NCBI GenBank assembly: GCA_963823335.1
Contig: CAWGLD010000001.1
Coordinates: 672,001 to 736,000, forward strand
DNA length: 64,000 nucleotides
Source of the DNA: an uncultured delta proteobacterium
GTDB taxonomy: Bacteria > Desulfobacterota > Desulfobacteria > Desulfobacterales > B30-G6
Direction of reading: 5' to 3'
Shown: piece by piece, positions 11,563 through 36,277 of the stretch
Layout of the letters: the number at the start of each line of letters is the position of its first letter
Position numbering within the stretch: the first letter of the stretch is position 1
The notes under the pieces: generated by a model
What the model was told of the DNA's origin: nothing
The model's database searches: none
The model's input: only the letters and a program-made list of their open reading frames with translations
Translations under genes and position numbers: made by a program

Positions 11563-11568
11563 CGATAT

Positions 11569-17936: not shown

Positions 17937-17993
17937 TACCCATTTCGAGTAGGCACTATATAGGCAATAAAATGGCCTTGATTGTCTTGTGCT

Positions 17994-18878
17994 TCATGAC
18001 CCGTTGACCCTGTGTGCGCCATCATGGGTCAGAAGGGGTGTATAGAGGGCAGGTCTACGATCCCTGAAGAGCCCCCAGCCACTTCTTTCTGCCGCCATGG
18101 CATCCAGGTCAACCTCCGCCGAGACAACCGTTTCCGAAGTACGGTCAGCCCGCTCCATTAGCCGGCCTTTATTGTCGGTAATAAAGGAAGACCCGTAAAA
18201 AGTAATCGCAGAACCATCGATGTTTTCTCTTCCCACACGATTTGACACCACCACAGGCACCATATTTGCAGCGGCATGTCCTTGTATACAGGTTTGCCAG
18301 TGATCCCTGGAGTCATATTCATGATCTTGCGGCTCGGAACCGATAGCGGTTGGGTAAAGGAGAATTTCAGCGCCCATGAGAACCATGCTCCTTGCAGCTT
18401 CAGGAAACCACTGATCCCAGCAGATGCCGATCCCGATGGTGCCGTAACGGGTTTTCCAGACACGAAAGCCGGTGTCACCGGGGCTGAAATAATATTTTTC
18501 CTGATACCCAGGCCCGTCCGGTATGTGTGATTTGCGATAGATGCCTAGAATGGCACCGTCTGCGTCGACAACCGCAATCGTGTTGTAATAGGTCTGATTC
18601 TTTTTTTCGAAAAAGCTGATGGGCAGCACAACCCTCAACTGTCTGGCGAGTGCTGAAAAATGTCGCACCCCGGGGTTGTCCTGAATATCGGCGGCGAGAC
18701 CGAAGAAATCCTGTTTCTGGGATTGACAAAAATAGAGCGTTTCAAAAAGTTCCTGAAGCAAAATGATCTGCGCGCCGCTGGAGGCGGCCTCCCGCACCAG
18801 TGTTTCAGCCTTGGCGATGTTTTCATCCCGGTCCGTGCTGCACATCATCTGGGTAGCGGCAATGGTTACTTTTCGCAT
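17994..18878 (-). CDS. aguB: N-carbamoylputrescine amidase
   Basis: Nitrilase triad QELF / YRKSHIPDGPGYQEKYYF / ICWDQWFPE; YPTAIGSEP; start MRKVTIAA with GGAG RBS. Confidence 0.95.
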   Translation of the reverse strand: MRKVTIAATQMMCSTDRDENIAKAETLVREAASSGAQIILLQELFETLYFCQSQKQDFFGLAADIQDNPGVRHFSALARQLRVVLPISFFEKKNQTYYNTIAVVDADGAILGIYRKSHIPDGPGYQEKYYFSPGDTGFRVWKTRYGTIGIGICWDQWFPEAARSMVLMGAEILLYPTAIGSEPQDHEYDSRDHWQTCIQGHAAANMVPVVVSNRVGRENIDGSAITFYGSSFITDNKGRLMERADRTSETVVSAEVDLDAMAAERSGWGLFRDRRPALYTPLLTHDGAHRVNGS

Positions 18879-18910
18879 GTGCGTCTTCTCCTTCGAGCCG
18901 CAACAATTTA

Positions 18911-20008
18911 TCAGACGGCCGGGACCTGCTGGGTGATACAATGGATGTTCCCGCCGCCGAGCAAAATCTCGCGGGTCTGTACACCCACGATCACCCGCTC
19001 GGGGAAAAGAGCTTGCAGGGATTGCCTGGCCGCCACATCGTGGGGATCGTCAAAAAACGGCATGACGATGCCTCCGTTGGCCATGTAAAAATTGATGTAG
19101 GACCCGGCCAGCCGGTCCCCGGGATTCCTGGGTCGCGTGTTGTCACTGGAATCGAGACCCTCACTTTCTGTTGCGGTCATAAAAAGAGGGCCTGGCTGAT
19201 GAATTTTATGAATTACGAGGTTTCTTCCCCGGGCATCTTTTGACCGGGATAAAAAATCGAAAGCTTCTTCAGATATTTTTCGCTGGGGATCGGTGACATC
19301 ATCCGTCCATGTGAGAGCAACGACCCCCGGTCTTATGAAACAGCACAGGTTGTCCACATGCCCGTCTGTCTCATCGTGGTAGACCCCTTGGGGGAGCCAG
19401 ATGATTTTTTCCACGTTTAAAAAGGATTCCAGATAATCTTCAATCTGCCTCTTTGAAAGTTGTGGGTTACGGTTGGCATTCAAAAGACAGCCTTCGGTGG
19501 TAATGAGCGTTCCTTCTCCATCCACATGAATGGCGCCCCCTTCCATGATGAATGGCGCCCGGTATCGATCCCTGTTTTCAATTTCGAGTACCTTTTTGGC
19601 AACCCGGTCGTCCTGGTCCCACGGAAAATAGAGTCCTTTTTCGAGCCCGCCCCAGGCGTTGAAGCGCCAGTCAATACCACGGACCACGCAAGTCCTGTCA
19701 TTTACGACAAAGGTGGGGCCCACATCCCGCATCCAGGCATCGTCGGAAGATATCTCCAGGACCCGCACTTGCCCGGGCAACCCAAGGCGGGCATTTTCGA
19801 GCTGGTGTCCTGACACCCCTACAGAAACCTGCTCGAAACGGGATATGGCCGCAGCGACTGCAGCAAACGCTTTTTGTGCGGGCTTGGCAGCAAGCCGCCA
19901 GGTGTCTTGTCGCTCCGGCCAGAGCATCCAGCAGCCCTGGTGGGGCTCGAACTCACCCGGCATGCGAAAACCGTCATTCCGTGGATGGTTGTTCAAAGTC
20001 GTTGACAT
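18911..20008 (-). CDS. aguA: Agmatine deiminase
   Basis: [53 protein letters not shown]. Confidence 0.97.
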
Positions 20009-20019
20009 GTGGATCCATG

Positions 20020-20055
20020 ATAAACACCCCCGTGCATACGCACGGGGGTGTTTAT
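20020..20055. terminator. 16-bp stem hairpin between potD and aguA (terminator or mRNA stabiliser)
   Basis: ATAAACACCCCCGTGC-ATAC-GCACGGGGGTGTTTAT perfect stem. Confidence 0.65.
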
Positions 20056-20056
20056 T

Positions 20057-21103
20057 TTAATGCGATTTTGCCCGTGTCCAGGCTTCATCCATGTAACGGT
20101 TCTTATTCCCAAGGTCCTTGGTAAAATGAAGTGTCTTCATGATGTCATCCGTGGGATAAATTCCAGGATTTGTCACGTCTTCCGGTGTAATATAAGGCAT
20201 GGACGCCGCATTGGGCGTGGCATACTGATTATAGTTGGAAAGTTCGGCACCCACCTGCGGCTCGAGAATCCAGTTAATCCACTTGTGGGCTGCATCGGAA
20301 TTAGGCGCCTTGGCAGGGATGCACATGGAGTCAAACCAGATCTCGCTTCCTTCCTTGGGGATGATAAACGCCAGGGTATCCGGCTCCTCGGTAACCGACT
20401 GGATGGCATCTCCATTATAGACGATGGCGGCCGCAGCGGTTCCTGCAACCACATCGTTTTTCCCGCCGACGCCGGGCTTAAACCCCATACAGTCCTTTAA
20501 CTTTTTCGTCGCCACCAGCAGATCGGCAGCTGCCTTGAGCTCTTTGGGTTCGGTGCTGTTGAAATCGTATCCCAGATAAAGGAGTGAGATACCCATCATT
20601 TCGCGGACCGAATCAATCAGCCAGAAAGCGCCGGGGTTCTTTTTTTGATCAAACAGAATCGACCAGGACTGGGCGTCTTCGGGCTTGATCTGGTCTTTTC
20701 GATACATGAGACCCACCGTGCCCCACTGCCATGCCACGGACCATTTGTTCCCTGGATCATAAGAGGTTTCCCGGAAAATAGGCTTCAGGTTCTTCATGTT
20801 CGGAATCTTGGCATGATCGAGCGGTTGAATCAGCTTCTGGTTGATCAACACAGGCATGATATAGTCCGACGGTACGATGATATCGTACTGACTGACACCG
20901 CCGGCCTGGAGCTTGGCCACCATCTCTTCATTGTTTTCGTAAATGTCGAGCCTGACTTTGATCCCTGTCGCTTCTTCGAAAGCGGCCGGCATCGCCTCCT
21001 CATCCATATACTCGGACCAGATGAAAATCTTCAGTTCTTCAGCCACTACCACGGCTGGAACCAGCAACGACAACACGATAAAAACCATAAATAATTTACG
21101 CAT
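20057..21103 (-). CDS. potD: Polyamine ABC transporter substrate-binding protein
   Basis: Signal peptide; WSEYM, YDIIVPSDY, WGTVG, PKEGSEIWFD. Confidence 0.9.
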   Translation of the reverse strand: MRKLFMVFIVLSLLVPAVVVAEELKIFIWSEYMDEEAMPAAFEEATGIKVRLDIYENNEEMVAKLQAGGVSQYDIIVPSDYIMPVLINQKLIQPLDHAKIPNMKNLKPIFRETSYDPGNKWSVAWQWGTVGLMYRKDQIKPEDAQSWSILFDQKKNPGAFWLIDSVREMMGISLLYLGYDFNSTEPKELKAAADLLVATKKLKDCMGFKPGVGGKNDVVAGTAAAAIVYNGDAIQSVTEEPDTLAFIIPKEGSEIWFDSMCIPAKAPNSDAAHKWINWILEPQVGAELSNYNQYATPNAASMPYITPEDVTNPGIYPTDDIMKTLHFTKDLGNKNRYMDEAWTRAKSH

Positions 21104-21205
21104 CTCTCTCTCCTTTCTCTTGGTTAGTGCCTGTTAACACCTTAACAACTTGTTACCTTTACACAACTCACTCGACCCCTGGAATCCTCGAACCCTTCAG
21201 TTACA

Positions 21206-21997
21206 TCATCCTTTACGTGAAATACGCTCGGTGCCGATAACAAGAACCACCGTAATGATCATGATAAGGGTCGACAAAGCATGAATCTGGGGAGTCACAC
21301 CCCGGCGAACGGCTGCAAAAATGTAAAGAGGCAGCGTCTGGGATTCAGGCCCGGCGGTAAAGAAGCTGATTACAAAATCATCCAGAGAAAGCGTGAAGGC
21401 CAGCATACCCCCGGCCACAATACCGGGCATCAGTAATGGCAGCATGATGCGTCTTAGCAGATACCAGTTGCTGGCAAACAGATCACGTGCCGCTTCTTCA
21501 ATTTCATGGCCGATGGCGATAAGTCGGCTGCGTACCACAAGCGCGACAAATGCAACTTGAAAGGTGATGTGCCCGATGATCATGTTCAGAAGCCCGGGTT
21601 CAAACATGGTTGAGAGTACCCGCAAAAGCCCGAAGGCGACCACGAGTGCTGCCGCCAAAATAATATCCGGAATAACCACCGGGATGTGCAAGACAATATC
21701 GAGGGCGTTGCTGGTTCTGCGGGTCCAGGGAAAGCGGTCCATACCGATGGCCAATACGGTTCCCAAAACCGTGGCCACAAGGGTCGACACCACTGCCAGT
21801 ACCAGCGTGTTCCAGGCTGCTTCCAGAATCCATTCATTGCTGAAAAGTTTGACATACCAGTCGAGAGTAAACCCTTTCCAGACCAGACCACGCCGGGCCG
21901 AATTCACCGAGAAAACGGCAACGCCCAACAAAGGGATGTAGAGAAAACCCATGGTGAACAAGGCCAGAGAGGTAATGATGGGATGAGTTCGTTTCAT
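21206..21997 (-). CDS. potC: Polyamine ABC transporter permease
   Basis: GFTLDWY, EEAARDL EAA loop, FTLSLDDF, TLPL. Confidence 0.92.
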   Translation of the reverse strand: MKRTHPIITSLALFTMGFLYIPLLGVAVFSVNSARRGLVWKGFTLDWYVKLFSNEWILEAAWNTLVLAVVSTLVATVLGTVLAIGMDRFPWTRRTSNALDIVLHIPVVIPDIILAAALVVAFGLLRVLSTMFEPGLLNMIIGHITFQVAFVALVVRSRLIAIGHEIEEAARDLFASNWYLLRRIMLPLLMPGIVAGGMLAFTLSLDDFVISFFTAGPESQTLPLYIFAAVRRGVTPQIHALSTLIMIITVVLVIGTERISRKG

Positions 21998-22903
21998 ACG
22001 TGCTCGATCTCCTTGCTCCTGCGCCGATAGATCTGGAGGCTGATCATGGTCAGCACCATGAGCCCCATGCTGATGGCTGCACCAAAAGGCCAGTCCCTGC
22101 TGGATCCGAACTGTTGCTGGATCAGATTTCCAACCAGCATGTACTTGGCGCCTCCCAAAAGATCGGGAACGATAAACATACCCATGGCCGGAACAAAGGT
22201 CAGAATGACCCCCACGGACAATCCGGGCATCGTCTGGGGCAGAATGGCCTGGGTAAATACACGTATCCGTGATGCATACAGATCCTGGGCAGCTTCCACC
22301 AGGGACCAGTCGAGTTTTTCCACACTAGCGTACAGCGGCAAGGTGACAAAAGGTAAAAACATGGAAACCATACCGATATAGACCGCGAAGGCATTCGGAT
22401 AGAGAGGTGCCCCCTCGCTGATAAATCCCAGCGCGGCGGCCAGCTTGGCAAATGGAAGTTCCGGTGCCAAAATCAAAAACCAGGCATAGGTTCTGAATGA
22501 CCATGTTGGTCCAGAAGGGGATGATCACCAGTGTCAGCCACATGTAACGGCTTCTTTCTTCCCGTGCGGCAATAAAAAAGCACAGAGGATATGAAAGCAG
22601 GATGGATACCAGGGTCGTTACCAGAGCCACCACCACCGATCGCCACAGGATGAGCAGGTAATCGGACGTCCATCCAAACAGGCTGAAGCCCATGAGCCGT
22701 TTGTAGTTTTCAATGGTGAATTCCCATACCAGCTGGCCGTAGGCCCCACGCGTGGCAAAACTGACCACCACCAGAACCAGTCCGGGCAGTACCAGAAAAA
22801 CCAAGAGCCAGAGCATTCCGCTTGAAAGGAAAAAAAACCCGCGTTTCAGGAGTTGCGCCTGGGTGGTCAGTTCTCCGTACCATATGAGGAGCCTATGTTT
22901 CAT
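21994..22903 (-). pseudogene. potB: Polyamine ABC transporter permease with a +1 frameshift at ~22496 (real or sequencing error)
   Basis: PFWTNMVI is followed in another frame by RTYAWFLILAP; removing one base gives a 302-aa PotB with EAAQDL and DWPFGAA. Confidence 0.85.
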
Positions 22904-23958
22904 CGGTATTATCCAGTATTACCAGTTCGTTGGGCGAAAGTTCAAGCCAAACTTGATCACCGGGCTTAAAATTTTTATAAGAACTGGTACGGACACGAAG
23001 AGGGCCGGGATTGAGCCAGAGATCAAAATTGGTGCCCCGGTAAATGACTTCACTGACCGTCGCCCTTACACCGTTTGTTTCAGGCTGGGAATCCCGAATC
23101 CAGACCCACTCGGGCCGGATCGCCAATAGACCGCTTTCCCATGGAGGCTCTTTTTCTACTTTCAATACACCGAAGGGGGTCTGGATACCACCGGTGACTT
23201 TCTCTGCCTTTGATGAGGTTTGCAGCACCCAGAAACTCCGCCACAAATCTGTTTTTGGGAAAGTCGTACACTTCCTGCGGCGTTCCGTATTGAACCACCC
23301 GTCCTTCATGCATCACCGCCAGACGATCGCTGCAGACCAGTGCTTCGGACTGGTCATGGGTAACCAGAAGAAAGGTTTTCCCGAGACGGCGCTGGATGCG
23401 CCGAAGATCCTCTTGAACCTGTGCCCGCAATTTGGCATCGAGGGCGGACATGGGCTCGTCCAGCAACAGAATCTCCGGTTCGTTCACCAGCGCCCGTGCA
23501 AGTGCCACGCGCTGTTTTTGACCACCTGACAACTGATCAGGTCGACGGTTTTTCATCTCCTGAAGCCCCAGCATCTCCATCCGTTTGTCCACCCGCTTTT
23601 CTACCTCGCTGTTGGGGAATTTTCGCGAGCGCAGTCCGAAGGCAATATTTTCATAGACACTCAGATGGGGAAAAAGCGCATAACTCTGAAAGACCGTATT
23701 CACCTGTCTTTTGGTGGCGGGCAGGGAAGTAACATCCTGCCCCCCCAGATAGACGTGACCTGTATCTGGTAATTCCAGACCGGCAATAATGCGAAGCAAC
23801 GTGGTTTTACCACAACCGGAAGGTCCCAGCAGGGTCAGAAATTCACCACTGTATACCTCCAGATCCACGTCCTTGAGGGCTTCCACATTTCCGAAGCGCT
23901 TGTTGATACCCTTGACAATCAATCCGTCTTTGTTTGCAGAAATCATCTTTCCTGGCAT
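22893..23958 (-). pseudogene. potA: Polyamine ABC transporter ATPase with a +1 frameshift at ~23210 (real or sequencing error)
   Basis: GPSGCGKT, VFQSYALFPH, LSGGQKQR; after GAANLI the C-terminal domain (AIRPE, IYRG) is in another frame; removing one base gives 354 aa. Confidence 0.85.
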
Positions 23959-24003
23959 TTCTCTATTAAGGTTAAGATACCTCTTTTACCTGCCTGGGGT
24001 GTA

Positions 24004-24549
24004 TCAGCCCATATAACCGGGTGTGCGTGGAACACGAACAGCTGCATTCAGAACATTTTGAGCGAGTCGGTGTCGTTTCTCGCCGGCCGTACCGGCTGAA
24101 ATGCGCTGTTTCATCTGGCTATTCCGAAGTTTGCGGGAATTTTTATCCGGTTCTTTGAACAGCAAAGCCCCGTAATTGCATTCATCCACACAGACCGGCG
24201 TGCCGCCACAAAGATCACACTTGAATGCCTTGCCGGACCCGTATTGCTCGATCATACCATAAGGGCAGGCATCGACACAATCACCGCACCCGTCACATTT
24301 GCTCACATCCACCACAACGACGCCCCTGTCGTTTTTGAAGATGGCCTCCACCGGACAGGCCTCCATACAGTCTGGTTTCGGACACTGAAAACAGATGTTC
24401 TGTACCGAATACCCCTGGAGCGGAAAATTGTTTATTTTCATTCGTGCCTTCGAGGGCATGAACAAACCTTCTTTTGCAGCAGCACAGGCATATGTGCAAC
24501 GATTGCACCCTGTGCAGCGATTGGGTATGGCCAACAGATGCTTTTCCAT
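24004..24549 (-). CDS. Multi-[4Fe-4S] ferredoxin-like electron-transfer subunit (DmsB/AOR partner type)
   Basis: CTGCNRCTYAC, CFQC..PDCMEACP, CDGCGDCVDACP, KCDLC...CVDEC. Confidence 0.92.
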   Translation of the reverse strand: MEKHLLAIPNRCTGCNRCTYACAAAKEGLFMPSKARMKINNFPLQGYSVQNICFQCPKPDCMEACPVEAIFKNDRGVVVVDVSKCDGCGDCVDACPYGMIEQYGSGKAFKCDLCGGTPVCVDECNYGALLFKEPDKNSRKLRNSQMKQRISAGTAGEKRHRLAQNVLNAAVRVPRTPGYMG

Positions 24550-24608
24550 CGTACTCCTCCATCGTTATATATCAAACCTGCGGTTAGCGATGCTAACACG
24601 TTTATTTT

Positions 24609-27600
24609 TTAAAGACCTTCAAGACCAAGTTTTTCCAACTTGTCTTCACCGGGCCTGCCGTCAGCATCCCATCCGCGAAGATGATAATAGAGTAGTTTCA
24701 TCTCCTCCAGGTCTTCGAAACGTAAAACACGCCCTTCATGGGGACCATTTTCGAGGGTCTTTTTGATCAATTTATCCGACAGCACATCATCCTTTGCCGT
24801 AAAGCCTGCCCGAAGATTGTAAAGACGCATGAGGTTCCAGATCCGTTCGCCCGCTTTGTCCAAATCTTCGGCAGAAAATTGCCGACCCATACCTGCGGTC
24901 AACAGACCCGCCATGATCTGTGTATCGACAGATCCCCAGAAGTCACAAAAGCACATGCACCATTTGATGGCATTGCCGTTCTGACCCTTGATCACTTCTT
25001 TGACCATTGAATCGAGTTTGAAGGGGTCTTCCGCAAACAAGGTAAACGCTCTTAGATGGCAGGCACCACGCTCACTGGTGGCATACGCCAAGCCCATCCC
25101 ATAACTTCCCCTGGGGTCGTAAGCGGGCATTTCCAGTCCTTTGGCATGGGCCGCTTTTCCGGACTCCCCATATAACGCATCCAGTTTTGCGGCACCCTGG
25201 GCCAGTGTACGGCCTCTCTCCGTGGACAGACGCGCGATTTCCTCCACCACCGCCAGGTACCCCTCTGGCTGACCGAATGCCAGTTCAAAGTCATTCAGCC
25301 CCGCTTCGGTCAGATCCATGGCCAGGGCGATGGTACTGCCTGTAGACATGGTGTCCAGACCAAGATCATCGCAAATGCGGTTAAAACGCATGACCTGCTC
25401 CAGGTCATTGATCTCGCAGTTGGAACCACCCAGGCATAATGTCTCGTATTCAGGTCCTTCCATTTCGACCCCGTTAACGGAGGTAAAATTGCCGCAGCCC
25501 AGCGGACACGATGCACAGGCCCTGTCTCCGATCTGGATGGACTTGATGGCTTCCGAATCGAGTGAATTGCGTCGGGGATTCATACCCTGAGTGTAATTGC
25601 GGGTGGGATGTATACCCATCTCATTGGTAACTTCCACCAGCATAGGCGTGCCTTTATTCTTGGCCCACAGGTTTCCTTCGGTCAACAGGTTGGACTCTGT
25701 GGCATCGGCCACCTTCCCCAGGAAAACACCCATATCAGCAACCTGAACCCCTCCTGTGCCGATACAGGCAAGCGCCTTGAGCTTCTTGGCTCCGAAAAGA
25801 GACCCCGCGCCTCCACGTCCCATCTGCCGATAGGCTTCTGAGCCGATACAGGCAAAGGGGATGATATTTTCGCCAGCCGGGCCGATGGAGAGACTCTTGA
25901 CCTCATGCCCCATGGTCTCCTGCAGCCATTCCTCTGTCTCGAATATTCCTTTACCCCAGACAGCATCCGCTTTTTCCAGGCTTACCCGGTCATCTTCGAT
26001 ACGCAGATAAACCGGGCTATCCGCCTGACCCGTAATGACGATACCGTCATACCCGGCGAATTTGAGTTCGGGACCGAAGGCACCACCTATGTTTGATTCG
26101 AAAATCGTGCCTGTGGCCGGCGACTTGGAAACAAGACAGAGCCGGGATGCCGTGGGTGCCAGGGTGCCGCACAATGGACCGGTCATGATCACGATGGGGG
26201 TGTCCGGTGACAGGGCATCGGCGGTGGGATCCGAAAGATCGTAGAAATACCGTGTCGCAAGACCCCACCCGCCGATGTAGTCATTTAGCCAGTTTTTGTT
26301 AATAGGCTTGGCTGTAACGGTTCGGGATGAAAGATCCACATGCAGCAGTTGGCCGGCGTAGAGATTCATGGTCTGGGGTCTTTTGGGCAGTTCGATGGAT
26401 TTGAAAACATCTTCGAGCCGGTTGAGAATTTCATCTAAAATTTTCTGGGGCACATTCAAGGCCGGTTCAAATCGGATGTTTTTTGCATTGGTCAGGGTTC
26501 CGGCCGTGAGGACGCCTCGCGAAAATAGACCCGAAGCGACTTTGTACCCGATGCCGTCTGTGGAAAATTCCATGCCTATCAAAAGCCCCAGACCCCTGAC
26601 ATTGGCCAGTACCCCGGGATATCGATCCTGAAGTTGTCTCAACTGGCTGCGCACATAGTGGCCTTTGGTTTTAGCCTGCCCGGCCAGATCTTCCTCCAAT
26701 AAAACCGTGATCGCCGCCAGGGCGGATGCACACGCCAGGGGATTTCCGCCGGTGGTGGTAGTGTGCATAAAGGGGTTGGGCTCCATGCATTCCCATATTT
26801 TCGCGGTGGACATAAAGGCGGACATGGGCACCACACCACCTCCCAGGGCTTTGCCCAGGCAGAGGATGTCCGGTGCGACATTCCAGTGATCCACACCGAA
26901 GATCTCTCCGGTACGGCCCATGCCGGTCTGGACCTCATCCGCGATAAGGAGCACGCCGTAATGACTGCAGATTTCACGTAAACGCGGCCAGTAATCATCG
27001 GGTGGCACGATGGCGCCGGCTTCACCCTGTATGGGCTCCGCAACGACAGCGGCAATACCGTCACCCACCGCTTTGGCAGCCGCCAGGGCTTGTTCCACAG
27101 CCTGGGCATCGCCAAAAGGAACATGCCGGACCCCCTCGAGCAGGGGCAGCAGGGGCTCCCGATACGTCTTTTTACCCATCAATGAAAGCGCTCCCAGGGT
27201 CTTGCCGTGAAAGGCCTTGAGCATGGAGATGAATCCGCTTTTTCCGGTGTAGAGCTTGGCCAGCTTCATGGCGCCTTCCACCGCTTCCGTTCCGGAATTG
27301 GCGAAAAAGCCGTATTGAATCTTTCCCGGTGTCAGCAACGCCAGGACCCTGGCCAGTTGGGCGCGCAAGGGATCGAGCATCTCCTGGCTGTACTGGGGCG
27401 AACGGTCCAGCTGGGCTTTGACGGCCTGCACAATCTTCGGGTGACGAATTCCGTAGGAGTATAAACCAAAGCCGCCCAGAAGGTCCAGATACTCGCGGTC
27501 GAGGGCATCCACAAGGACAGAGCCCTGACCCGTCCACTCTGTAATGGCAAAATTCGTCGCCTCGGTGACGGATTTTCTGTAATTGAGAAAGCCTTTGTTG

Positions 27601-27773
27601 ATGTGGTCCCTGAAATTGCGTTCGGTTTTCAGAGCGACTTCCTGGCGTACATCGAGGGCTGTCTGTTCCAGGGGGGTCAATATGATATCAACCATTTGCA
27701 CGGCCTCTTTCAGAGCCGTCTGTATGTCCCTTCCCCGATAATCGCTCTTATAATTTTTTTCAAAATCTCGCAT
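24609..27773 (-). CDS. patA: Fusion of putrescine aminotransferase (aa ~1-460) and W/Mo aldehyde:ferredoxin oxidoreductase (aa ~469-1054)
   Basis: N-half HINKGFLNYRKSVT, LGGFG, DEVQTG, LGKALGGG, HTTTTGGNP (PatA/YgjG-like); C-half GQLLHVDLS, SKSPATG, LKFAGYD, GRGG, CASCPLGC, EYET, DDLGLDT, YDPRG, ERGACH (AOR); AGGAG RBS. Confidence 0.88.
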   Translation of the reverse strand: MRDFEKNYKSDYRGRDIQTALKEAVQMVDIILTPLEQTALDVRQEVALKTERNFRDHINKGFLNYRKSVTEATNFAITEWTGQGSVLVDALDREYLDLLGGFGLYSYGIRHPKIVQAVKAQLDRSPQYSQEMLDPLRAQLARVLALLTPGKIQYGFFANSGTEAVEGAMKLAKLYTGKSGFISMLKAFHGKTLGALSLMGKKTYREPLLPLLEGVRHVPFGDAQAVEQALAAAKAVGDGIAAVVAEPIQGEAGAIVPPDDYWPRLREICSHYGVLLIADEVQTGMGRTGEIFGVDHWNVAPDILCLGKALGGGVVPMSAFMSTAKIWECMEPNPFMHTTTTGGNPLACASALAAITVLLEEDLAGQAKTKGHYVRSQLRQLQDRYPGVLANVRGLGLLIGMEFSTDGIGYKVASGLFSRGVLTAGTLTNAKNIRFEPALNVPQKILDEILNRLEDVFKSIELPKRPQTMNLYAGQLLHVDLSSRTVTAKPINKNWLNDYIGGWGLATRYFYDLSDPTADALSPDTPIVIMTGPLCGTLAPTASRLCLVSKSPATGTIFESNIGGAFGPELKFAGYDGIVITGQADSPVYLRIEDDRVSLEKADAVWGKGIFETEEWLQETMGHEVKSLSIGPAGENIIPFACIGSEAYRQMGRGGAGSLFGAKKLKALACIGTGGVQVADMGVFLGKVADATESNLLTEGNLWAKNKGTPMLVEVTNEMGIHPTRNYTQGMNPRRNSLDSEAIKSIQIGDRACASCPLGCGNFTSVNGVEMEGPEYETLCLGGSNCEINDLEQVMRFNRICDDLGLDTMSTGSTIALAMDLTEAGLNDFELAFGQPEGYLAVVEEIARLSTERGRTLAQGAAKLDALYGESGKAAHAKGLEMPAYDPRGSYGMGLAYATSERGACHLRAFTLFAEDPFKLDSMVKEVIKGQNGNAIKWCMCFCDFWGSVDTQIMAGLLTAGMGRQFSAEDLDKAGERIWNLMRLYNLRAGFTAKDDVLSDKLIKKTLENGPHEGRVLRFEDLEEMKLLYYHLRGWDADGRPGEDKLEKLGLEGL

Positions 27774-27855
27774 TTTATACTCCTATCTTTCTTTTTGCTG
27801 CCATGCCGCAATTGACCTTGATGGCATGTGCGCACAAAAGCGGTCTGACCCAAAC

Positions 27856-28001
27856 TAGAAGCTATCTCAAAAAAGTTTTTTGACCCAATTTCTGTGTTGG
27901 TTTCTTGCTTCAACTCCTCGGAATACTGCAGTATGCCTGCGGGTTGACGTTCGGGCCCGCCTTGAACTTGAGCCAAAACTCTTTTTTTGAGATGGCTTCT
28001 A
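27856..28001. mobile_element. MITE (~146 bp) whose terminus supplies the TetR stop codon
   Basis: TIR TAGAAGCYATCTCAAAAAA with one mismatch; internal motifs shared with the element at 58087. Confidence 0.75.
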
Positions 28002-28601
28002 AACTGTCGGCTGCTTTAACAATTTGACGGCGATCTCCTTTGAAGCTTTGGCAAAGGTCTCAAATGGCTGACCATCGGAAAGAAACTGTGTGTGGAATTC
28101 CAACCCTTCCATAAGGGTTACAATAAAATCCGCCGCCATTTTTACATCTTTTGCCTTTGTGATACCCGCTTCCTGGTATATTTCCAGCTCATGCACCAGA
28201 TAATCTCGAAACCGTTTGAACATTTCCCTGAAGCGTTTCCGAATCACCGGTTTCCTGAAGCTGAGATAGTAAAACCCGAAGTGAACACCCGTATCCACAG
28301 TCCTTGACCACTCAAGGGAAAAAATAGTATCCATCAGCGCTTGAAACCGCTCATTTAAATCCGGGATGTGACTGAAATCAAGAAATTCCGGTGCCTCGTA
28401 TTTCTCGATGATGAGGTCTACGAGCTCGATGGTCATATTTTCTTTGGTTTTAAAGTAGTGAATGATCAGACTGGGATGGATTTTCGCGCGCTTTGCGATC
28501 TTGCCGATGGATGCGCCCTCCAGTCCTTCCTTCATGATTACCTGGTAGTAATTTTCTAGAATTTCTGATTTGCGTATTTCAGCTTTTTGATTTTTCCGCA
28601 T
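27999..28601 (-). CDS. TetR-family (BetI-like) transcriptional regulator
   Basis: EGLEGASIGKIAKRAKIHPSLIIHYFKTKE HTH; C-terminal LMEGL. Confidence 0.92.
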   Translation of the reverse strand: MRKNQKAEIRKSEILENYYQVIMKEGLEGASIGKIAKRAKIHPSLIIHYFKTKENMTIELVDLIIEKYEAPEFLDFSHIPDLNERFQALMDTIFSLEWSRTVDTGVHFGFYYLSFRKPVIRKRFREMFKRFRDYLVHELEIYQEAGITKAKDVKMAADFIVTLMEGLEFHTQFLSDGQPFETFAKASKEIAVKLLKQPTV

Positions 28602-28624
28602 GGGTCGCTTGCGCTCCGGAGAAA

Positions 28625-28646
28625 ATTATATGAATATTCATTTAAT
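28625..28646. promoter_or_regulatory. Palindromic operator overlapping the -10/+1 region of the TetR operon promoter
   Basis: ATTATATGAATATTCATTTAAT, 20/22 self-complementary with perfect core ATGAATATTCAT. Confidence 0.7.
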
Positions 28647-28670
28647 AATCTTGGCGAAAAGGGCTGTCAA
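28642..28670 (-). promoter_or_regulatory. Sigma70-type promoter of the tetR-patA/aor operon
   Basis: TTGACA-17 bp-TATTAA. Confidence 0.7.
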
Positions 28671-28713
28671 GAAAAAATTTGAAACAAAAAAAACGATCGC
28701 ACCCCCGCTAGGC

Positions 28714-28763
28714 TCTGCCATATGGCAGAAGATTCCTCGCAGCTTGCTGCGAGGAATCTTCAA
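28714..28763. repeat. REP-like palindromes
   Basis: TCTGCCATATGGCAGA abutting GAAGATTCCTCGCAGC-TT-GCTGCGAGGAATCTTC; related motifs at 47492-47633. Confidence 0.7.
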
Positions 28764-28784
28764 TAGCGATCTTCTACTGACACC

Positions 28785-30080
28785 CTATATTGCTCGGCTC
28801 AGCGGGAAATTTGGTGGCTGAAACAGTCTGTGCGACGGCACGGCCCAGATATCCGGCTCGGCAAGGGGTTTGATGGACTTCCCGGTGTGGATCACCAGGC
28901 CACCCAGCCACTTTTTACCGAGCTGTTGTGCGACTGTGCGCATGGCACGCGTATCTTTGGTGTGTGCGGTGGCGCGGGATTTAATTTCCATTGCGATGAT
29001 GCCGGCCGGTGTTTCAAGCAGCAGGTCCAACTCCATGCCGGATCTTGTGCGGTAAAAATACAGTTCGGCTTCTTTGCCGCGGGTTCGCATCCATTTGATA
29101 ATTTCCGCAACCACCATGGTTTCATAAAGCTGGCCGCTGGTTTCTCCCCTATAACCGGTCAGTTGACGCCAGATCCCGACATCAGTCCAGAAAAGCTTGG
29201 GCGTTTTGATCGTAGAACTTGTGATGTTTTTATAATAGGGCTGCAGCAGAAAGGTCTGATAGGAGAGCCGCAAATATTCCATGTACCTTCTGGCTGAATC
29301 GACGCTGATACCGGTATCTCTTGCCAGTTCTGAATAGTTGAGCAGCATGCCGGAGCGCAGAGCAGAGAGCTTTTGGTATTTTCGAAACGGCATCAAATCA
29401 TCCAGACGGGCCAAATCAGCGAGGTCGCGTTCCAAATAGGTATATCCATAGTTTTTTAGCCATTCCCATCGTTCTGCGTCCGACAATGGGAGCAAGGCAG
29501 GCATACCGCCCCAGGCAAGTATATGTTGTTCCGCCTGACGACAGGCCAAATCGTCGGCTTCAAGCAAAACCGACTGAATGCCAGTAAGTATCCGGGCTAC
29601 TGGATGCCCTGAAAAAAACGCATCGATCAGCGGCACGGGGCGTTCTGCATTGCCGTCCTTTGCCTTCTGGAGCAGTTCACACGGCATTAGTGGCCAAAGT
29701 TCGTAAAAGAAAGCCCTGCCTGCCAATGATTCGCGAATCTTTTTGAGCAATAGAATCTGACTCGATCCGGTAAGCACCGTAAAGGAGATCGCCCCTTCAT
29801 CAAAAGCGTATTTCACTTTTTCAAAAATGGAAGGCTCTTTTTGAGCTTCGTCAATAACTGCATTGCCCACGGTTTGCGCCCAGGCCAGGGTTGAAAGCTG
29901 GCGAAGTGTGTCACGGTTTTCCGGGGCATCCAAGTTGATATATCGCAAGGCCGAATAAGCGGTCCTGCAAAGGGTGGTTTTCCCGGTTTGGCGCGCGCCG
30001 GTGAGAACCACGATTCGATGGGTTGCAGCGTTGGGTAAGCGTTGGTTGACTTGGCGGTATTTGTGTGAATCAAACGACAT
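28785..30080 (-). CDS. AAA+ ATPase with C-terminal DUF4143 / PD-(D/E)xK-like domain
   Basis: GARQTGKT, IDEAQK, LTGSS, ESLAGR, WGGMP, YLERDL, PKLFWTD, YRTRSGMELDL...EIK. Confidence 0.88.
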   Translation of the reverse strand: MSFDSHKYRQVNQRLPNAATHRIVVLTGARQTGKTTLCRTAYSALRYINLDAPENRDTLRQLSTLAWAQTVGNAVIDEAQKEPSIFEKVKYAFDEGAISFTVLTGSSQILLLKKIRESLAGRAFFYELWPLMPCELLQKAKDGNAERPVPLIDAFFSGHPVARILTGIQSVLLEADDLACRQAEQHILAWGGMPALLPLSDAERWEWLKNYGYTYLERDLADLARLDDLMPFRKYQKLSALRSGMLLNYSELARDTGISVDSARRYMEYLRLSYQTFLLQPYYKNITSSTIKTPKLFWTDVGIWRQLTGYRGETSGQLYETMVVAEIIKWMRTRGKEAELYFYRTRSGMELDLLLETPAGIIAMEIKSRATAHTKDTRAMRTVAQQLGKKWLGGLVIHTGKSIKPLAEPDIWAVPSHRLFQPPNFPLSRAI

Positions 30081-30086
30081 GAACGT

Positions 30087-30115
30087 ATAATAGGCTGTAA
30101 AATTTACGATGTCAA
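30087..30115 (-). promoter_or_regulatory. Sigma70-type promoter predicting a leaderless mRNA for the AAA/DUF4143 gene
   Basis: TTGACA-17 bp-TATTAT, then 6 nt to ATG; no SD. Confidence 0.65.
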
Positions 30116-30239
30116 CATAAAATATACATCAGTATCGCCTTTTGTAAAACAGGGATTCGATGCAAAAGTCATTGCCTGACAAGCCTAACCAACCCCCGTT
30201 TCAAGGTCTGATCGATCACCTTGCCTTGGGCGAACCATG

Positions 30240-31463
30240 TTAGTCACGTCCGTCTTTATATGTTTCCTCCACGGTTACACCTAATTTGGCCAGTTCCTTG
30301 AAATAATAGGTCCGGGCTTTCTTTTCGAGCTGCTCTGGAACGTACAATCCTTTTTTCGTAAAAACGTCCTCCACCATCATTTTTACAAAAACCGCCGCAC
30401 ATTGCCCTGTCATAAAAGCCTCATGGGTCAATCCGGAGCTCTTGAAAGCATCAACCAGACCCGGTGCGTTGGCATAGGTATCGACCCGGACAGGTTTACC
30501 ATTCTTGAAGCCATCGACCCGGACAAGAAAGGCGGCTTCTTCGGTGATCACCCCTTCATCGATAATGCTCTGTATTTCATCTGAATATTTAGGGGCAGGC
30601 GGGCAGAGTTCCAGAACCAGGTCCATGGGTATCACGGAAGCACCATTGACGGTCACCGGCTTGGTGGAGAGCAGTCCGAGCTTATACAGATCTTCGGACA
30701 GCTCGACCCCGGACCCGCCGTACTTGAATTCGACATTTTTAACACCTTTGAGGGCTTTATCGGCCATCAGTCCCATGGTAACAGGCTCATCATGTTCATG
30801 GTCGACCAACCGTACCGGGTGGTCGATCCCCTTGAATTTCATCCAGATAGGTCGGCTAAAGGGTTTGTCTATGATGTGCTCCCCGTCCTCATAGCGAAAT
30901 GTTTTGTAGGCCATGTCTCCGAAAGCCACTTCCGGCGACCACCAGAAAGGCGTAAACCGCTTGGTCTTCAAGCCCTCGTATACATATATGCCGATGGTGT
31001 CGCATGAATCCATTTTTTCGACTGCCTCCCTGGCCATGACGTTGGCCAGGCCGGGGGCGGAGCCTCCACCGAGAAGCGCTGACAGACCCTTTGCCTTGAA
31101 TTTTCGATGCCATTTTGTAAACATCATCTGATAGCTTTCAACAAAACCGACGTCTTCCATGGGGCCGGCCATGTCAAAATAGGACGCATTCACGGCCAGA
31201 GCCGCTTCCATGATGTTCAGGTTGTACTCCAGGGGCAACCCGTTCACTATCAGGTCACAGCCCTGAGCAGCTTGAATCACGTTATCGACATCGCTGGCGT
31301 CCAACTGGAGCGCCTTGGCCTTTTTTAAAGAGCCGCTCAATTTTTGGGCGGCTTTCTGATCATAATCCGCACAGATAATTTCCGATACCTGGGGATGTTC
31401 ATCCATCCTTTTGGCGATGGTGCTTCCTTGAGCGCCAACACCGACCACAATTATTTTTTTCAC
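30240..31463 (-). CDS. Saccharopine dehydrogenase-family NAD(P)-dependent oxidoreductase
   Basis: Rossmann GVGAQG, IICAD, YFDMAG, GSAPGLANV, WSPE, HEHDE; GTG start with AAGGAAG RBS. Confidence 0.85.
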   Translation of the reverse strand: MKKIIVVGVGAQGSTIAKRMDEHPQVSEIICADYDQKAAQKLSGSLKKAKALQLDASDVDNVIQAAQGCDLIVNGLPLEYNLNIMEAALAVNASYFDMAGPMEDVGFVESYQMMFTKWHRKFKAKGLSALLGGGSAPGLANVMAREAVEKMDSCDTIGIYVYEGLKTKRFTPFWWSPEVAFGDMAYKTFRYEDGEHIIDKPFSRPIWMKFKGIDHPVRLVDHEHDEPVTMGLMADKALKGVKNVEFKYGGSGVELSEDLYKLGLLSTKPVTVNGASVIPMDLVLELCPPAPKYSDEIQSIIDEGVITEEAAFLVRVDGFKNGKPVRVDTYANAPGLVDAFKSSGLTHEAFMTGQCAAVFVKMMVEDVFTKKGLYVPEQLEKKARTYYFKELAKLGVTVEETYKDGRD

Positions 31464-31509
31464 AATTCTTCCTTTCAATTTGTAATGATTGTGTGTTAGT
31501 TTTGCCAAA

Positions 31510-31538
31510 ATAGTAGGCCGCCCATGTTCGTTTGTCAA
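31510..31538 (-). promoter_or_regulatory. Sigma70-type promoter of the saccharopine dehydrogenase-like gene
   Basis: TTGACA-17 bp-TACTAT. Confidence 0.7.
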
Positions 31539-31631
31539 TAAAAATATATCATAATTCGGCGGATATGGTTAAATTACTATAAAATAAACGCGGATTACGA
31601 TGGAAAATAACTATTGATCCGGGAGGACCCC

Positions 31632-32117
31632 ATGATGAAAAAAGAGAAAAAGACCAGCAGGAAAAAGATTGACCGGGTCGATCAAGACATGATCCGATTG
31701 CTCCAAAAAGATGGACGAATGTCGATTGTAGATATCGCCAAGGAACTCGGTATTTCAGAAACCACGGCCCGTACCCGCCTCAAGCGCTTGATCCGTAAAG
31801 AAATTATCAATGTGGTGGCGGTCAGCAATCCCATCAAACTCGGGTTTGAAATCATCGGCAATCTCAAACTCACCATCGATCTTAAAAAGAAAGACCATAT
31901 CCTGAGCAGGCTGGTCAAAAACGACAAATTGAATTATATTGCGCTGACCACCGGTGGAACAGACCTGGACGTCGAGTTTATCGCTCGTTCTCTGGATGAA
32001 TTCAAGGCTTTGATTTTTAATGAAATACCCAATATCGACGGTGTCATATCGCTTGACACGTCTTTGATTGTGGAAATCGTCAAAGACACGTGGGATTTTG
32101 GAACAGCATGGGATTGA
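31632..32117 (+). CDS. Lrp/AsnC-family transcriptional regulator
   Basis: IDRVDQDMIRLLQKDGRMS..IAKELGISETTARTRLKRL; TTGGTDL RAM domain; GGAGG RBS. Confidence 0.93.
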   Translation: MMKKEKKTSRKKIDRVDQDMIRLLQKDGRMSIVDIAKELGISETTARTRLKRLIRKEIINVVAVSNPIKLGFEIIGNLKLTIDLKKKDHILSRLVKNDKLNYIALTTGGTDLDVEFIARSLDEFKALIFNEIPNIDGVISLDTSLIVEIVKDTWDFGTAWD

Positions 32118-32136
32118 TCGGGAGCGGAGCCCTCTT

Positions 32137-32760
32137 TTAGATTCCCACAAACGGATTGGTGCGTTTCTCCCGACCGATGGTCGTGAGTCCCATATGCCCC
32201 GGGTAAACCGTGACATCGTCATCGAGGGTAAAGAGCTTTTCCTGTATACTTGCCTTTAATACGCCAAAATCTCCCCCGGGAAAATCGGTCCTTCCAATGG
32301 ATCCCGCAAAGAGGGTATCCCCGACGAATACGGCTTTGCCTGCATGCAGAGAAATGCCGCCAGGGGTGTGCCCCGGGGTATGGATCACCGTTAAGGCAAT
32401 ATTGCCCACCTGCACCACATCGCCATGGGCAACTGTGCGGTCCGGGGGAGGTGAATTATCGGAAGACATGCCCCACGCCGCAGCCGTTGCCGACAGCTGA
32501 GACAACATGGGCGCATCCAGTGAATGGATCAACAGCTCCGCCCCGGTTACCTCTTTCATGCGCTGGTTGGCACTCACATGATCAAAATGACCATGGGTGT
32601 TGATAATTGTCTTTACCGTCAGGCCGGCCTCCGCCAAAACCATTAAAATTCTGTCGGCTTCGTCTCCGGGATCAATTACCGCCGCTGCCTTGGTTTCTTC
32701 GCAGCCCACGATATAACAGTTTGCCATAATCGGTCCGACAGTCAGGTCCTTGATGATCAA
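32137..32760 (-). CDS. MBL-fold metallo-hydrolase (glyoxalase II-like)
   Basis: THGHFDH, HTPGHTPG, GDTLFAGSIGRTD, PGH. Confidence 0.92.
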   Translation of the reverse strand: MIIKDLTVGPIMANCYIVGCEETKAAAVIDPGDEADRILMVLAEAGLTVKTIINTHGHFDHVSANQRMKEVTGAELLIHSLDAPMLSQLSATAAAWGMSSDNSPPPDRTVAHGDVVQVGNIALTVIHTPGHTPGGISLHAGKAVFVGDTLFAGSIGRTDFPGGDFGVLKASIQEKLFTLDDDVTVYPGHMGLTTIGREKRTNPFVGI

Positions 32761-32769
32761 TGGTGCCTC

Positions 32770-33456
32770 CTATTGTCTTTGCTTCGCCTGTTCAATAAGA
32801 TCGAGAATGCTCGCGATCTTGTCAGGGGGTCTGGCCTCTGTAAATGATTTGAATGCCGCTTCGGACATGTTGTTCTCCAGATAGGTCTGAACATCAAACG
32901 TCTCCCACCAGCAATCCATGATCTTGAAACACGGCATGCCCCCCTCGCCGGTTGTCCTGCAGTAGCTGAAGGGAACCGGTCCGCCAAGCCGCGGGCAACG
33001 CCGTTCCAATGAGTCTTTGTCATCGACTGTTTTCATTTTCATGTCACCTTTTTCAATGGCGATCCGAAGAGAGTCCAGAATACCGTTGATGAATGGGCCG
33101 GATTCGTGGGTACCATATTTTTTCCCGATGTCGATGGCTTCATTAATGGAGACCTTGATGGGGATATCTTCACAATACAGCATCTCGAACACCGCAATCC
33201 GCAATATGTTTCTGTCGACATGCGGCATGCGATGAAGTTTCCAGTTGCTGGAAAAATGCTCGATGGTCGAATCGATCTCGCCCTTTGATTGTCTGACACC
33301 CTCCACCAGCTTTCGAAAAAAGGGAACAGCTTGCTTGGAGGGCGAAAAATTGCTGTAAAAATCATCCAGGCCCTGAACGGAGTCATCCTGAATCATATCC
33401 AGATAAAAAAGAGCCTGCATGGCGTGTTCTCTTGCTTTTCGCCGGTTCCCCGTCAT
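32770..33456 (-). CDS. nusB: Transcription antitermination factor NusB with a ~90-aa Cys-rich C-terminal extension (possibly a separate gene from 33042)
   Basis: RRKAREHAMQALF, VDRNILR, VSINEAIDIGK, FINGILD; then RRCPRLG...C...C...CWW. Confidence 0.9.
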   Translation of the reverse strand: MTGNRRKAREHAMQALFYLDMIQDDSVQGLDDFYSNFSPSKQAVPFFRKLVEGVRQSKGEIDSTIEHFSSNWKLHRMPHVDRNILRIAVFEMLYCEDIPIKVSINEAIDIGKKYGTHESGPFINGILDSLRIAIEKGDMKMKTVDDKDSLERRCPRLGGPVPFSYCRTTGEGGMPCFKIMDCWWETFDVQTYLENNMSEAAFKSFTEARPPDKIASILDLIEQAKQRQ

Positions 33457-33461
33457 GATGC

Positions 33462-33929
33462 TTAACCGATGGTCTCTAGAAGATTGGCCATCTCCACGGC
33501 CGCCATGGCAGCGCTGAAACCCTTGTTGCCGGCCTTGGTTCCCGCCCGCTCGATGGCCTGCTCGAGGGTATCGGCTGTAATTATACCGAAAATGACCGGA
33601 ATTTCCGATTCGATGCTGACCATGGCAATGCCCTTGGAAACCTCCGCGCTAACATAGTCGAAATGCGGTGTCGCTCCACGAATAACGGCCCCCAGACAGA
33701 TAACCGCATCATATTTCTTCTTCTGGGCCATCTTTTTGGCAATCAAGGGAATCTCAAAGGCGCCGGGCACCTTAACAACATCAATATCATCATCTTTGCC
33801 GCCACATCTCACCAGCGCATCCACGGCACCTCCGACGAGTCGCTCTGTAATGAAATCATTGAATCGACTCACCACAACAGCAAATTTTTTCCCTTCTGCA
33901 ATTAGATTGGCTTCAACAATTTTTGGCAT
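33462..33929 (-). CDS. ribH: 6,7-dimethyl-8-ribityllumazine synthase
   Basis: [34 protein letters not shown]. Confidence 0.97.
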
Positions 33930-34053
33930 TCTTCTCCTCCGGATTTATGGTATAACAAGGGTCCAAGTGTTTGTTTTCCAGCTTTTCTGCATAACGTTTA
34001 CCCTTTTATAACTTAAGTGTTTCACTCGAACCCTGGGACCCTGGAATCCTAAA

Positions 34054-35268: not shown

Positions 35269-35278
35269 TCTGAAACTC

Positions 35279-35950: not shown

Positions 35951-36032
35951 TAAATCCTGCGTTTAAATTAGTTAAACCCTGAGGCTGTAATCCAATACCA
36001 TTAACGTTAGCGATCCTGTCGTTTAAAAAGAA

Positions 36033-36162: not shown

Positions 36163-36277
36163 CCTGTAATATATACACGATTAACCCGACAAGCAACCTA
36201 CAGACATCAATTTGTTCATGATAAGGGAAAAACAGAACGTATGCTGCATGTCAAATCTCGTCTGTTTTGAAGTCAGG

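Follow-up and report, generated by a model that had tools for sequence, protein, structure and literature searches.

In Escherichia coli, putrescine is degraded by a route that starts with the aminotransferase PatA/YgjG and continues with PatD/YdcW, then GabT/PuuE and GabD. The intermediate of this route, 4-aminobutanal, cyclises spontaneously to 1-pyrroline, and the standard example of a bifunctional enzyme in which a cyclising aldehyde/imine intermediate is channelled is proline utilisation A (PutA), for which a tunnel has been documented. A third known system of relevance is that of the tungsten-containing oxidoreductases (WORs), which include aldehyde:ferredoxin oxidoreductases (AORs); Class II WORs are composed of a large subunit, WorL, and a small subunit, WorS, which contains four [4Fe-4S] clusters; they are ferredoxin-linked, while only 5 of the 92 WOR clades currently have an assigned physiological role (PMC13328260). 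Here we have analysed a stretch of 64,000 nucleotides (the window) from an uncultured delta proteobacterium of the order Desulfobacterales (positions 672,001 to 736,000 of contig CAWGLD010000001.1, assembly GCA_963823335.1), in which a PatA-type aminotransferase dependent on pyridoxal phosphate (PLP) and an AOR are encoded as one protein. We consider it likely, from its sequence and its neighbours, that this fusion is a natural enzyme with two activities that serves anaerobic polyamine catabolism and would convert putrescine to gamma-aminobutyric acid (GABA).

The predicted pathway resembles that of E. coli in the type of its first enzyme, in the logic of passing from putrescine through 4-aminobutanal to GABA and in the presence of polyamine transport genes nearby, but the NAD-dependent aldehyde dehydrogenase would be replaced by an oxygen-sensitive AOR-family enzyme together with a polyferredoxin, the AOR being covalently fused to PatA, and the second aldehyde step would probably also be carried out by an AOR. 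Like PutA, the fusion would place two consecutive catabolic reactions on one polypeptide, with an intermediate that equilibrates between an amino-aldehyde and a cyclic imine. Unlike PutA, which works with FAD and NAD, it is built from unrelated folds and would use PLP, a pterin cofactor and iron-sulfur (FeS) clusters, and a tunnel is in this case purely hypothetical.

The fusion gene occupies positions 24609..27773 on the minus strand as a single uninterrupted open reading frame (ORF) of 1054 codons. Its product contains three Pfam domains that far exceed their gathering scores, namely Aminotran_3 (PF00202; residues 76-456, 318.6 bits against a cut-off of 30.5), AFOR_N (PF02730; residues 475-672, 244.9 bits) and AFOR_C (PF01314; residues 703-1051, 362.8 bits). 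On the same strand, the PatA/YgjG-type class-III PLP aminotransferase domain (residues 1-460, 26394..27773) is followed by a linker of eight residues, ELPKRPQT (residues 461-468, 26370..26393), and by the AOR-family (WorL) domain (residues 469-1054, 24609..26369), which begins at the relic start Met469. The junction reads ...LNRLEDVFKSI-ELPKRPQT-MNLYAGQLLHVDL..., with Met469 at 26369, and the ELP(K/R)R part of the linker is conserved in an alignment of 39 fusions (A1). By inspection, there is no GGAGG-like Shine-Dalgarno sequence within ∼25 nt upstream of the Met469 ATG, and this codon lies in an ATGA context in which a deletion of 1 nt would yield a stop. An initial annotation of this DNA had described one PatA-AOR ORF of 1054 aa with this linker, Met469 at 26369, no Shine-Dalgarno sequence and a potential ATGA overlap; the open frame and its three domains bear this out, and the junction features are all present as described, as are the motifs CASCPLGC, EYET, DDLGLD and GACH in the AOR half. 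The assignment of GACH to the FeS site, in contrast, has to be corrected, since in the alignment to the Pyrococcus furiosus AOR (PfAOR) its histidine is the equivalent of the catalytic His448 and the distal cluster cysteine is Cys943 in CFCDFWG. Both halves of the fusion are complete, with their catalytic and cofactor residues retained.

The initial annotation had also cautioned that a one-base error in the linker could have joined two separate genes. This caveat is refuted, because the relatives are also encoded in one frame, because the internal methionine has been lost in many of them and because the public sequencing runs show no indel in the linker. In a whole-length search of a collection of 5.8 billion proteins, in which 120 clusters were listed, 120 of the 120 relatives among the matches listed carry PF00202, PF02730 and PF01314, with lengths of 978-1093 aa and 71-100% identity; they are labelled 'putrescine aminotransferase', their sources are Desulfobacterales, Desulfosarcina or Desulfobacula, and two RefSeq examples are WP_319405173.1 and WP_291462998.1. 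PatA and AOR form a single open frame in all 14 Desulfobacterales loci checked in named species genomes, one of which belongs to the Delta 1 symbiont of the gutless worm Olavius. Furthermore, 401 genomes of 89 families were sampled evenly across the window's order; the junction is spanned in one frame in 27 genomes of 14 families, and one further genome (G005) has the fusion gene in frameshifted pieces. Proteins of ∼1050 aa with the Aminotran_3, AFOR_N and AFOR_C domains, for which a search in independent genomes had been proposed, are present in these genomes. Alignment A1, which comprises 39 of the 120 listed relatives picked to span the identity range, has methionine at residue 469 in 15 sequences and S, E, A, T, Q, V or L in the other 24, which indicates that there is no conserved internal start at the AOR junction.

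Sequencing data over the junction, another check that had been proposed, gave the same answer. We aligned contigs from four public runs over positions 21900-27800, two of them from DNA libraries (X1 and X3) and two from RNA libraries (X11 and X14), and all four bridge the linker without a gap (X1, 26076-26576; X3, 26187-26448; X11, 26280-26834; X14, 26091-26409). The X14 contig covers the Met469 codon and 40 letters past it, ending 16 letters beyond the linker. No indel at the PatA-AOR linker was found in the contigs of any of the four runs. The fusion gene is therefore genuine, and it is conserved in sediment sulfate-reducing bacteria.

The PatA half scores 637.7 bits with NF008570, the NCBIfam putrescine-aminotransferase equivalog, whose cut-off is 612, and falls short of the cut-off of the older model TIGR03372. 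Its best PDB match is E. coli YgjG (4uox; E 2.4e-138, 465 bits), the next distinct family reaching 247 bits, and the PLP lysine, K308, lies in a CLGKALGGG motif that aligns with CLAKALGGG of YgjG and is invariant in 39 of the 39 fusions of A1. The full PatA/YgjG-like PLP domain noted previously is borne out by the NF008570 and YgjG matches and by the PLP lysine, and this half appears to be of the putrescine aminotransferase type, with a predicted activity on putrescine.

The AOR half gives full-length PDB matches to 9mqx_D (E 6e-129) and to PfAOR (1aor; 2e-124), and it also matches Aromatoleum aromaticum AorB (8c0z_A; 1.5e-104). The metal-site residues of this family have been described in the 2026 WOR classification as Thr243, Glu313, Tyr427 and His448 in PfAOR numbering (PMC13328260). 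By alignment these correspond to T709, E777, Y885 and H906 of the fusion, all of them invariant in A1. The same holds for C753, C756, C760 and C943, which align with C288, C291, C295 and C494 of PfAOR, the ligands of its [4Fe-4S] cluster. The clade of AORs to which the fusion belongs has a distinctive second pterin motif, KW(S/C)M(C/G)FCDFWG.

Directly 3' of the AOR lies a gene for a WorS/AorA-like polyferredoxin of 181 aa (24004..24549, minus strand), with 16 cysteines, four [4Fe-4S] ferredoxin-type motifs and its own GGAGGAG ribosome-binding site, so that the multi-[4Fe-4S] partner noted in the initial annotation is indeed there. Its PDB matches are 9mqx_E (9e-26), AorA (8c0z_C; 3e-25) and the small subunit of WOR5 (6x6u_B; 6e-24), and it is found in this position in all 16 fused loci, in the five split loci and in 15 of the 16 unfused sister loci considered below (20 of the 21 loci holding unfused and split relatives). 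No genes for FAD/NAD, Bfu-type or membrane-partner subunits occur next to the fusion, either among its neighbours in the window or in the related loci. Because the polyferredoxin is adjacent and no FAD/NAD or Bfu-type gene is nearby, the fusion fits a Class II WOR whose WorL carries PatA, and by analogy with this class we infer ferredoxin as the electron carrier of the system. The fusion thus shares AFOR_N and AFOR_C, the metal-site residues, the cluster cysteines and a homologous small subunit with the Class II WORs (P. furiosus ASOR/WOR5, 6x6u, and Caldicellulosiruptor bescii GOR) as well as with 1aor, A. aromaticum AorAB(C) (8c0z) and 9mqx. Unlike the Class II enzymes, its large subunit bears a PLP enzyme of 468 residues at the N terminus and, unlike the known WORs, it lies in a separate, well-supported Thermodesulfobacteriota clade of AORs.

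The fusion is embedded in a cluster on the minus strand with the order TetR, fusion, polyferredoxin, potA, potB, potC, PotD/F-like, aguA, aguB. The TetR-family regulator directly upstream (27999..28601, minus) has the Pfam domains TetR_N and TetR_C_37. Downstream of the polyferredoxin, the same strand encodes a potA-like ABC ATPase (22893..23958; ABC_tran and TOBE_2, best NCBIfam match PotA), a potB-like permease (21994..22903; BPD_transp_1), a potC-like permease (21206..21997; BPD_transp_1, best NCBIfam match PotC with 222 bits, below the cut-off of 326) and a PotD/PotF-like periplasmic polyamine-binding protein (20057..21103; SBP_bac_8, with 185.6 bits for PotD and 176.9 for PotF, both below cut-off). 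They are followed by aguA, for agmatine deiminase (18911..20008, minus; TIGR03380, 576.5 bits against 381.8, and Pfam PAD_porph), and aguB, for N-carbamoylputrescine amidase (17994..18941, minus; TIGR03381, 461.4 bits against 410.25, and Pfam CN_hydrolase). The layout of this operon is that expected for the uptake and catabolism of agmatine and putrescine, and it points to the formation of GABA with transfer of electrons to ferredoxin. No Aldedh-family gene is present within the operon, while the genome has at least five elsewhere. A consensus scan of positions 17500-29000 gave 8 promoter-like and 16 terminator-like sites, no excess over shuffled sequences (9.3 and 13.5), and defined no operon boundaries.

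Two of the transport genes are split in the window, potA into 23080-23958 and 22893-23309 and potB into 22325-22903 and 21994-22476. The contigs lack one base of potA at 23206/23209 in the four runs and one base of potB at 22492-22496 in the two runs that cover it (X3 and X11; X1 and X14 have no cover there), and each gene is a single frame in the relatives. Because the run contigs lack the extra base and the relatives are intact, both splits are insertions of the assembly. The other +1 events that had been noted in this operon are therefore really present in the window, but as single-base insertions peculiar to the assembly. Other apparent frameshifts in the genome may be similar assembly errors.

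A possible continuation of the pathway is found elsewhere in the same genome, where a gabT gene (TIGR00700, 548 bits against 506.65) has immediately behind it an AOR paralogue with 33% identity to the fused AOR (G000:C1:1458318-1461331; L091:3232-6350), inside a liv-type ABC-transporter operon. As GabT directly precedes the AOR paralogue, GABA would probably be converted to succinate through this unfused aminotransferase and AOR, and the pair would probably constitute a ferredoxin-linked route for that conversion. The operon also holds a pterin-binding-like gene and a radical-SAM gene, and the pair occurs as well in the relatives G001, G003, G005 and G006. The 4.37-Mb genome contains ∼13 other AOR-family genes (29-37% identity to the fused domain), which is unusually many.

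All these data suggest the following mechanism. Putrescine would enter the cell through the PotABCD-type transporter or be formed from agmatine by the action of AguA and AguB, and the PLP domain would move one of its amino groups to a 2-oxo acid, releasing 4-aminobutanal. The AOR domain, with a bis-pyranopterin metal site, presumably holding tungsten, and one [4Fe-4S] cluster, would then oxidise this aldehyde to GABA, and the two electrons would leave the AOR [4Fe-4S] cluster for the polyferredoxin, pass along its four clusters and reach a ferredoxin-type carrier. The supply and transamination steps are backed by homology above curated cut-offs, whereas the oxidation and electron-transfer steps would follow from the conserved residues, from the linkage of the genes (fused, split and convergent) and from what is known of Class II enzymes. 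The acid/aldehyde couple, at about -580 mV, is low enough to reduce ferredoxin, and reduced ferredoxin is worth more than NADH to anaerobes. The likely benefits of the fusion would then be the capture of 4-aminobutanal before it cyclises, a 1:1 stoichiometry of the two activities and the gain of low-potential reducing power instead of NADH.

The arrangement of these genes in other bacteria has been compared using 16 fused loci from named genomes. A TetR homologue (56-94% identity) is directly upstream of the fusion in 10 of them; of the six without it, four are cut by contig ends and two (L014 and L027) lack it. The pot genes are downstream in 11 of the 13 loci with enough sequence. In Desulfuromonadales/Geobacteraceae (L035, L041, L048, L049 and L076) separate genes occur in the order aor, polyferredoxin, patA, potABCD, and their products have 61% (AOR), 51-55% (polyferredoxin) and 67-71% (PatA) identity to the corresponding parts of the fusion system. 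These split homologues comprise the same three proteins, the same transporter and the same AOR clade, but as three genes in another order, and their AORs fall inside an unfused sister group and not next to the fused clade. The PatA-AOR-polyferredoxin module is thus conserved, fused or split, beside pot genes.

A different solution is found in Desulfobulbales, including the isolate Desulfopila sp. IMCC35006, where TetR, patA (72% identity) and a separate AOR precede potABCD. This AOR is from another clade (28% identity to the fused AOR), has its own ribosome-binding site and is not accompanied by a polyferredoxin. In a similar way, loci from two Desulfobacterales families (L092, L094 and L095) have patA (77%) followed by an AOR of a distant clade, with potA following in L092 and L095; no TetR was detected at these three loci. 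The presence of an AOR of another clade behind patA looks like convergent recruitment. A second AOR is close by in the three loci (before potA in L092 and L095), and the loci with patA and a distant-clade AOR behind it include L065:10001-13161, L047 and L028. Within the clade of the fusion itself, the unfused sister AORs of L044:431-10568, L031 and L039 (59-62% identity, with polyferredoxin) adjoin pot-like ABC transporter genes, and L044 also holds a PatA-like aminotransferase of 40% identity. As these sister members adjoin pot-like genes, in L044 together with a PatA-like gene, the whole AOR clade may act on aldehydes derived from amines.

Phylogenetic trees indicate how the fusion originated. 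The AOR tree (69 rows; quick IQ-TREE with LG+G4) was built with stop-free matches of more than 520 residues and left out the broken or partial L045, L053 and L058 as well as the duplicate loci L005-L008. In this tree the 16 fused rows form one clade (100 in the Shimodaira-Hasegawa-like approximate likelihood-ratio test, SH-aLRT), nested in a strongly supported larger clade (SH-aLRT 100, branch length 0.74) that also holds 17 unfused and 5 split relatives. The 13 fused rows of a PatA tree with 28 rows also form one clade with SH-aLRT 100, and its inner groups match those of the AOR tree. The fusion arose once. Free PatAs terminate just behind the helix ...LNRLED(T/V)FKSI (...FKSIS*) and free AORs begin with MNLYAGK. 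The fusion thus joins two whole genes end to start; about seven residues that had been spacer became the linker, and Met469 is the relic start. A derivation straight from the Desulfuromonadales operon was considered and rejected, given the order aor-polyferredoxin-patA and the position of those AORs inside the unfused sister group. A second independent fusion was suspected in G382, where a frame of 1046 aa surrounds PatA, and it was also rejected, since the distant AOR is in two frames and the congener G216 has separate genes, which points to a frameshift. Among the best 150 matches of a profile-free scan covering 1.84 billion representatives, only P0030, from the same family, spans both domains.

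Several observations weigh against a role of the fusion in converting putrescine to GABA, or against parts of it. Of the 16 fused loci, only those of the window and of its three nearest relatives (L014, L015 and L045) also hold aguA and aguB, and in Pontiella there is no AOR beside patA, which is found with pot genes, agu genes and another aminotransferase. Two genomes, G264 and G289, have a fused-clade PatA (82-83% identity) but neither AOR nor polyferredoxin, so that the AOR half is not indispensable. In G264 (L093, G264:C18:245000-256000; PatA ORF 8039-6642) the linker is kept as IEVPQRP... and is followed by a stop and then by potA, as if the AOR half and the polyferredoxin had been deleted secondarily; in G289, detected in the order-wide genome scan, the match covers the PatA part only (83% identity, query residues 1-465). 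The second pterin motif of the fusion, KW(C/S)MCFCDFWG, differs from the IDSAGLCLF of PfAOR. Contigs from RNA libraries show the presence of the gene and are not proof of its transcription. Furthermore, no AOR using an amino-aldehyde was found in the literature searches.

Of the alternatives to a GABA-forming enzyme that hands over its intermediate, the one that survives best dispenses with channelling. The two domains would then act independently, the aldehyde would equilibrate with free 1-pyrroline, and the fusion would only fix co-expression or stoichiometry, or be nearly neutral, which we regard as a real possibility although short of an even chance. The structural models bear directly on this point. 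An AlphaFold2 run on the 39 rows of A1 had a mean predicted local distance difference test (pLDDT) score of 61.1, was unusable and was replaced by a monomer run on an alignment of 130 rows, of which 63 were fused, 47 AOR-only and 20 PatA-only. The full-length model has a mean pLDDT of 91.7, but its predicted template modelling (pTM) score is 0.64 and linker residues 463-466 have pLDDT <50. It therefore gives no support for the fixed tunnel between the PLP and pterin sites that the initial annotation had proposed to look for; two well-folded domains are predicted for the monomer, with no fixed packing and hence no tunnel. PatA is an obligate dimer. A complex prediction of PatA residues 55-468 with AOR residues 469-1054, made with A1 and without controls, gave a score of 0.00 and is uninformative either way. 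Independent domains would also be consistent with the Desulfuromonadales, which manage with split genes in a different order, with the renewed loss of the AOR half in G264 and G289, and with the finding of only seven fixed differences between the AORs of the fused and the unfused sister groups, a number that cannot be interpreted as a hint of an interface. Against this, the one-frame fusion has been kept across 14 families and down to ∼70% identity, the linker of ∼8 residues with its conserved ELP(K/R)R keeps the domains close, and the intermediate is known to cyclise spontaneously.

It is also conceivable, though in our opinion unlikely, that the same two-step chemistry serves another amine, such as cadaverine, 1,3-diaminopropane, a spermidine-derived or another omega-amine, and yields the matching omega-amino acid instead of GABA. 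TIGR03372, the second putrescine-aminotransferase model, is not reached (487.2 against a cut-off of 658.65), and because of this low score the preferred amine could be cadaverine or another diamine. The PotD/PotF-like binding protein lies far below both equivalog cut-offs, aguAB are restricted to the closest relatives, and E. coli PatA also accepts cadaverine. Putrescine is favoured, on the other side, by the NF008570 score above its cut-off, by YgjG as top PDB match by a wide margin (465 against 247 bits), by AguA and AguB, which would supply putrescine within the window operon, and by the GabT+AOR pair, which would be available to use GABA.

A biosynthetic operation in the reverse direction, in which reduced ferredoxin would drive the reduction of GABA to 4-aminobutanal by the AOR and PatA would aminate this to putrescine, is in principle compatible with the enzymes, as aminotransferases are reversible and AORs are reversible too and the only enzymes known to reduce non-activated acids, as stated in PMC9295118. 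We judge it very improbable, since the operon encodes a transporter for uptake as well as two enzymes by which putrescine is already formed from agmatine, its TetR repressor architecture is typical of catabolic operons, and a GABA-consuming GabT+AOR pair is present. Finally, that the gene results from two neighbours merged through a sequencing or assembly error, as the two real single-base insertions in potA and potB of the same operon and the ATGA overlap created by a 1-nt linker deletion might suggest, can be dismissed in practice given the fusion in 120 of 120 listed relatives, its single frame in 27 genomes of 14 families, the gap-free junction contigs of four runs and the absence of the internal methionine in 24 of 39 sequences.

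The neighbours of the operon at 1-14000 and 28785-37435 are unrelated to it (relA/spoT, proS, ispG, mltF, an ornithine-aminotransferase-like gene, a rib operon and a DUF4143 ATPase). Two genes upstream of the operon, behind the DUF4143 ATPase, a saccharopine-dehydrogenase-like gene (30240-31538, minus) weakly matches carboxynorspermidine synthase (66 bits, with the cut-off at 800), and a link to polyamines is possible. Three genes at 7936-12882 (minus) encode an ornithine-aminotransferase-like protein (NF003145, 396 bits, below cut-off), a DAP/ornithine-type PLP decarboxylase and a third protein with a weak partial match to NF002563, argininosuccinate lyase (76 bits against a cut-off of 625); they may be a small biosynthetic cluster of amine or siderophore type. 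Elsewhere in the genome, another composite protein of 1029 aa (G000:C6; L090:2885-5974, minus) has a phosphotransferase (APH) domain, a Peptidase_M23 domain and, at its C terminus, one of the class-III aminotransferase type.

No published aminotransferase-AOR fusion, nor any AOR in putrescine catabolism, was found in searches of the full-text literature, subscription journals and supplements being outside these searches, in agreement with the remark of the initial annotation that no characterised example was known. The main text of the 2026 WOR classification (PMC13328260) makes no mention of aminotransferase, putrescine or polyamine, its supplementary datasets not being covered by this statement. 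The fusion therefore appears to be undescribed, while both of its halves and the overall logic of the pathway are of kinds already known. What would be new, if the function predicted from the sequence is right, is that a ferredoxin-linked AOR takes the place of an NAD-dependent aldehyde dehydrogenase and, most importantly, that the PLP and pterin enzymes are covalently fused; the combination of PLP, a pterin-bound metal and FeS clusters in one enzyme system is unreported. A bolder proposal, which we put forward only tentatively, is that this is the first PLP-tungstopterin-FeS bifunctional enzyme, a (PatA-AOR)2(polyferredoxin)2 assembly that would hand 4-aminobutanal over before its cyclisation; together with GabT and its neighbouring AOR it would make up a path from putrescine to succinate that does not depend on NAD and in which both aldehyde oxidations yield reduced ferredoxin, and the role of the whole AOR clade would be the oxidation of omega-amino-aldehydes.

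The fusion can be used as a 'Rosetta stone' that names the likely substrate source of an uncharacterised AOR clade, namely the product of a putrescine-type aminotransferase, and it offers a natural test case for whether a fusion evolved to tame a self-cyclising aldehyde. A compact module from diamine to amino acid might be of use in biocatalysis, or in reverse, as AORs can reduce acids. Public records call these proteins of ∼1050 aa only 'putrescine aminotransferase', which hides their oxidoreductase half, and this annotation needs to be fixed. Decaying biomass in marine and estuarine sediments releases putrescine and cadaverine, and the fusion points to an unrecognised, ferredoxin-linked anaerobic breakdown of polyamines in these environments. 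If this is true, sediment sulfate reducers and the symbiont of the gutless worm would gain extra conservable energy from polyamines.

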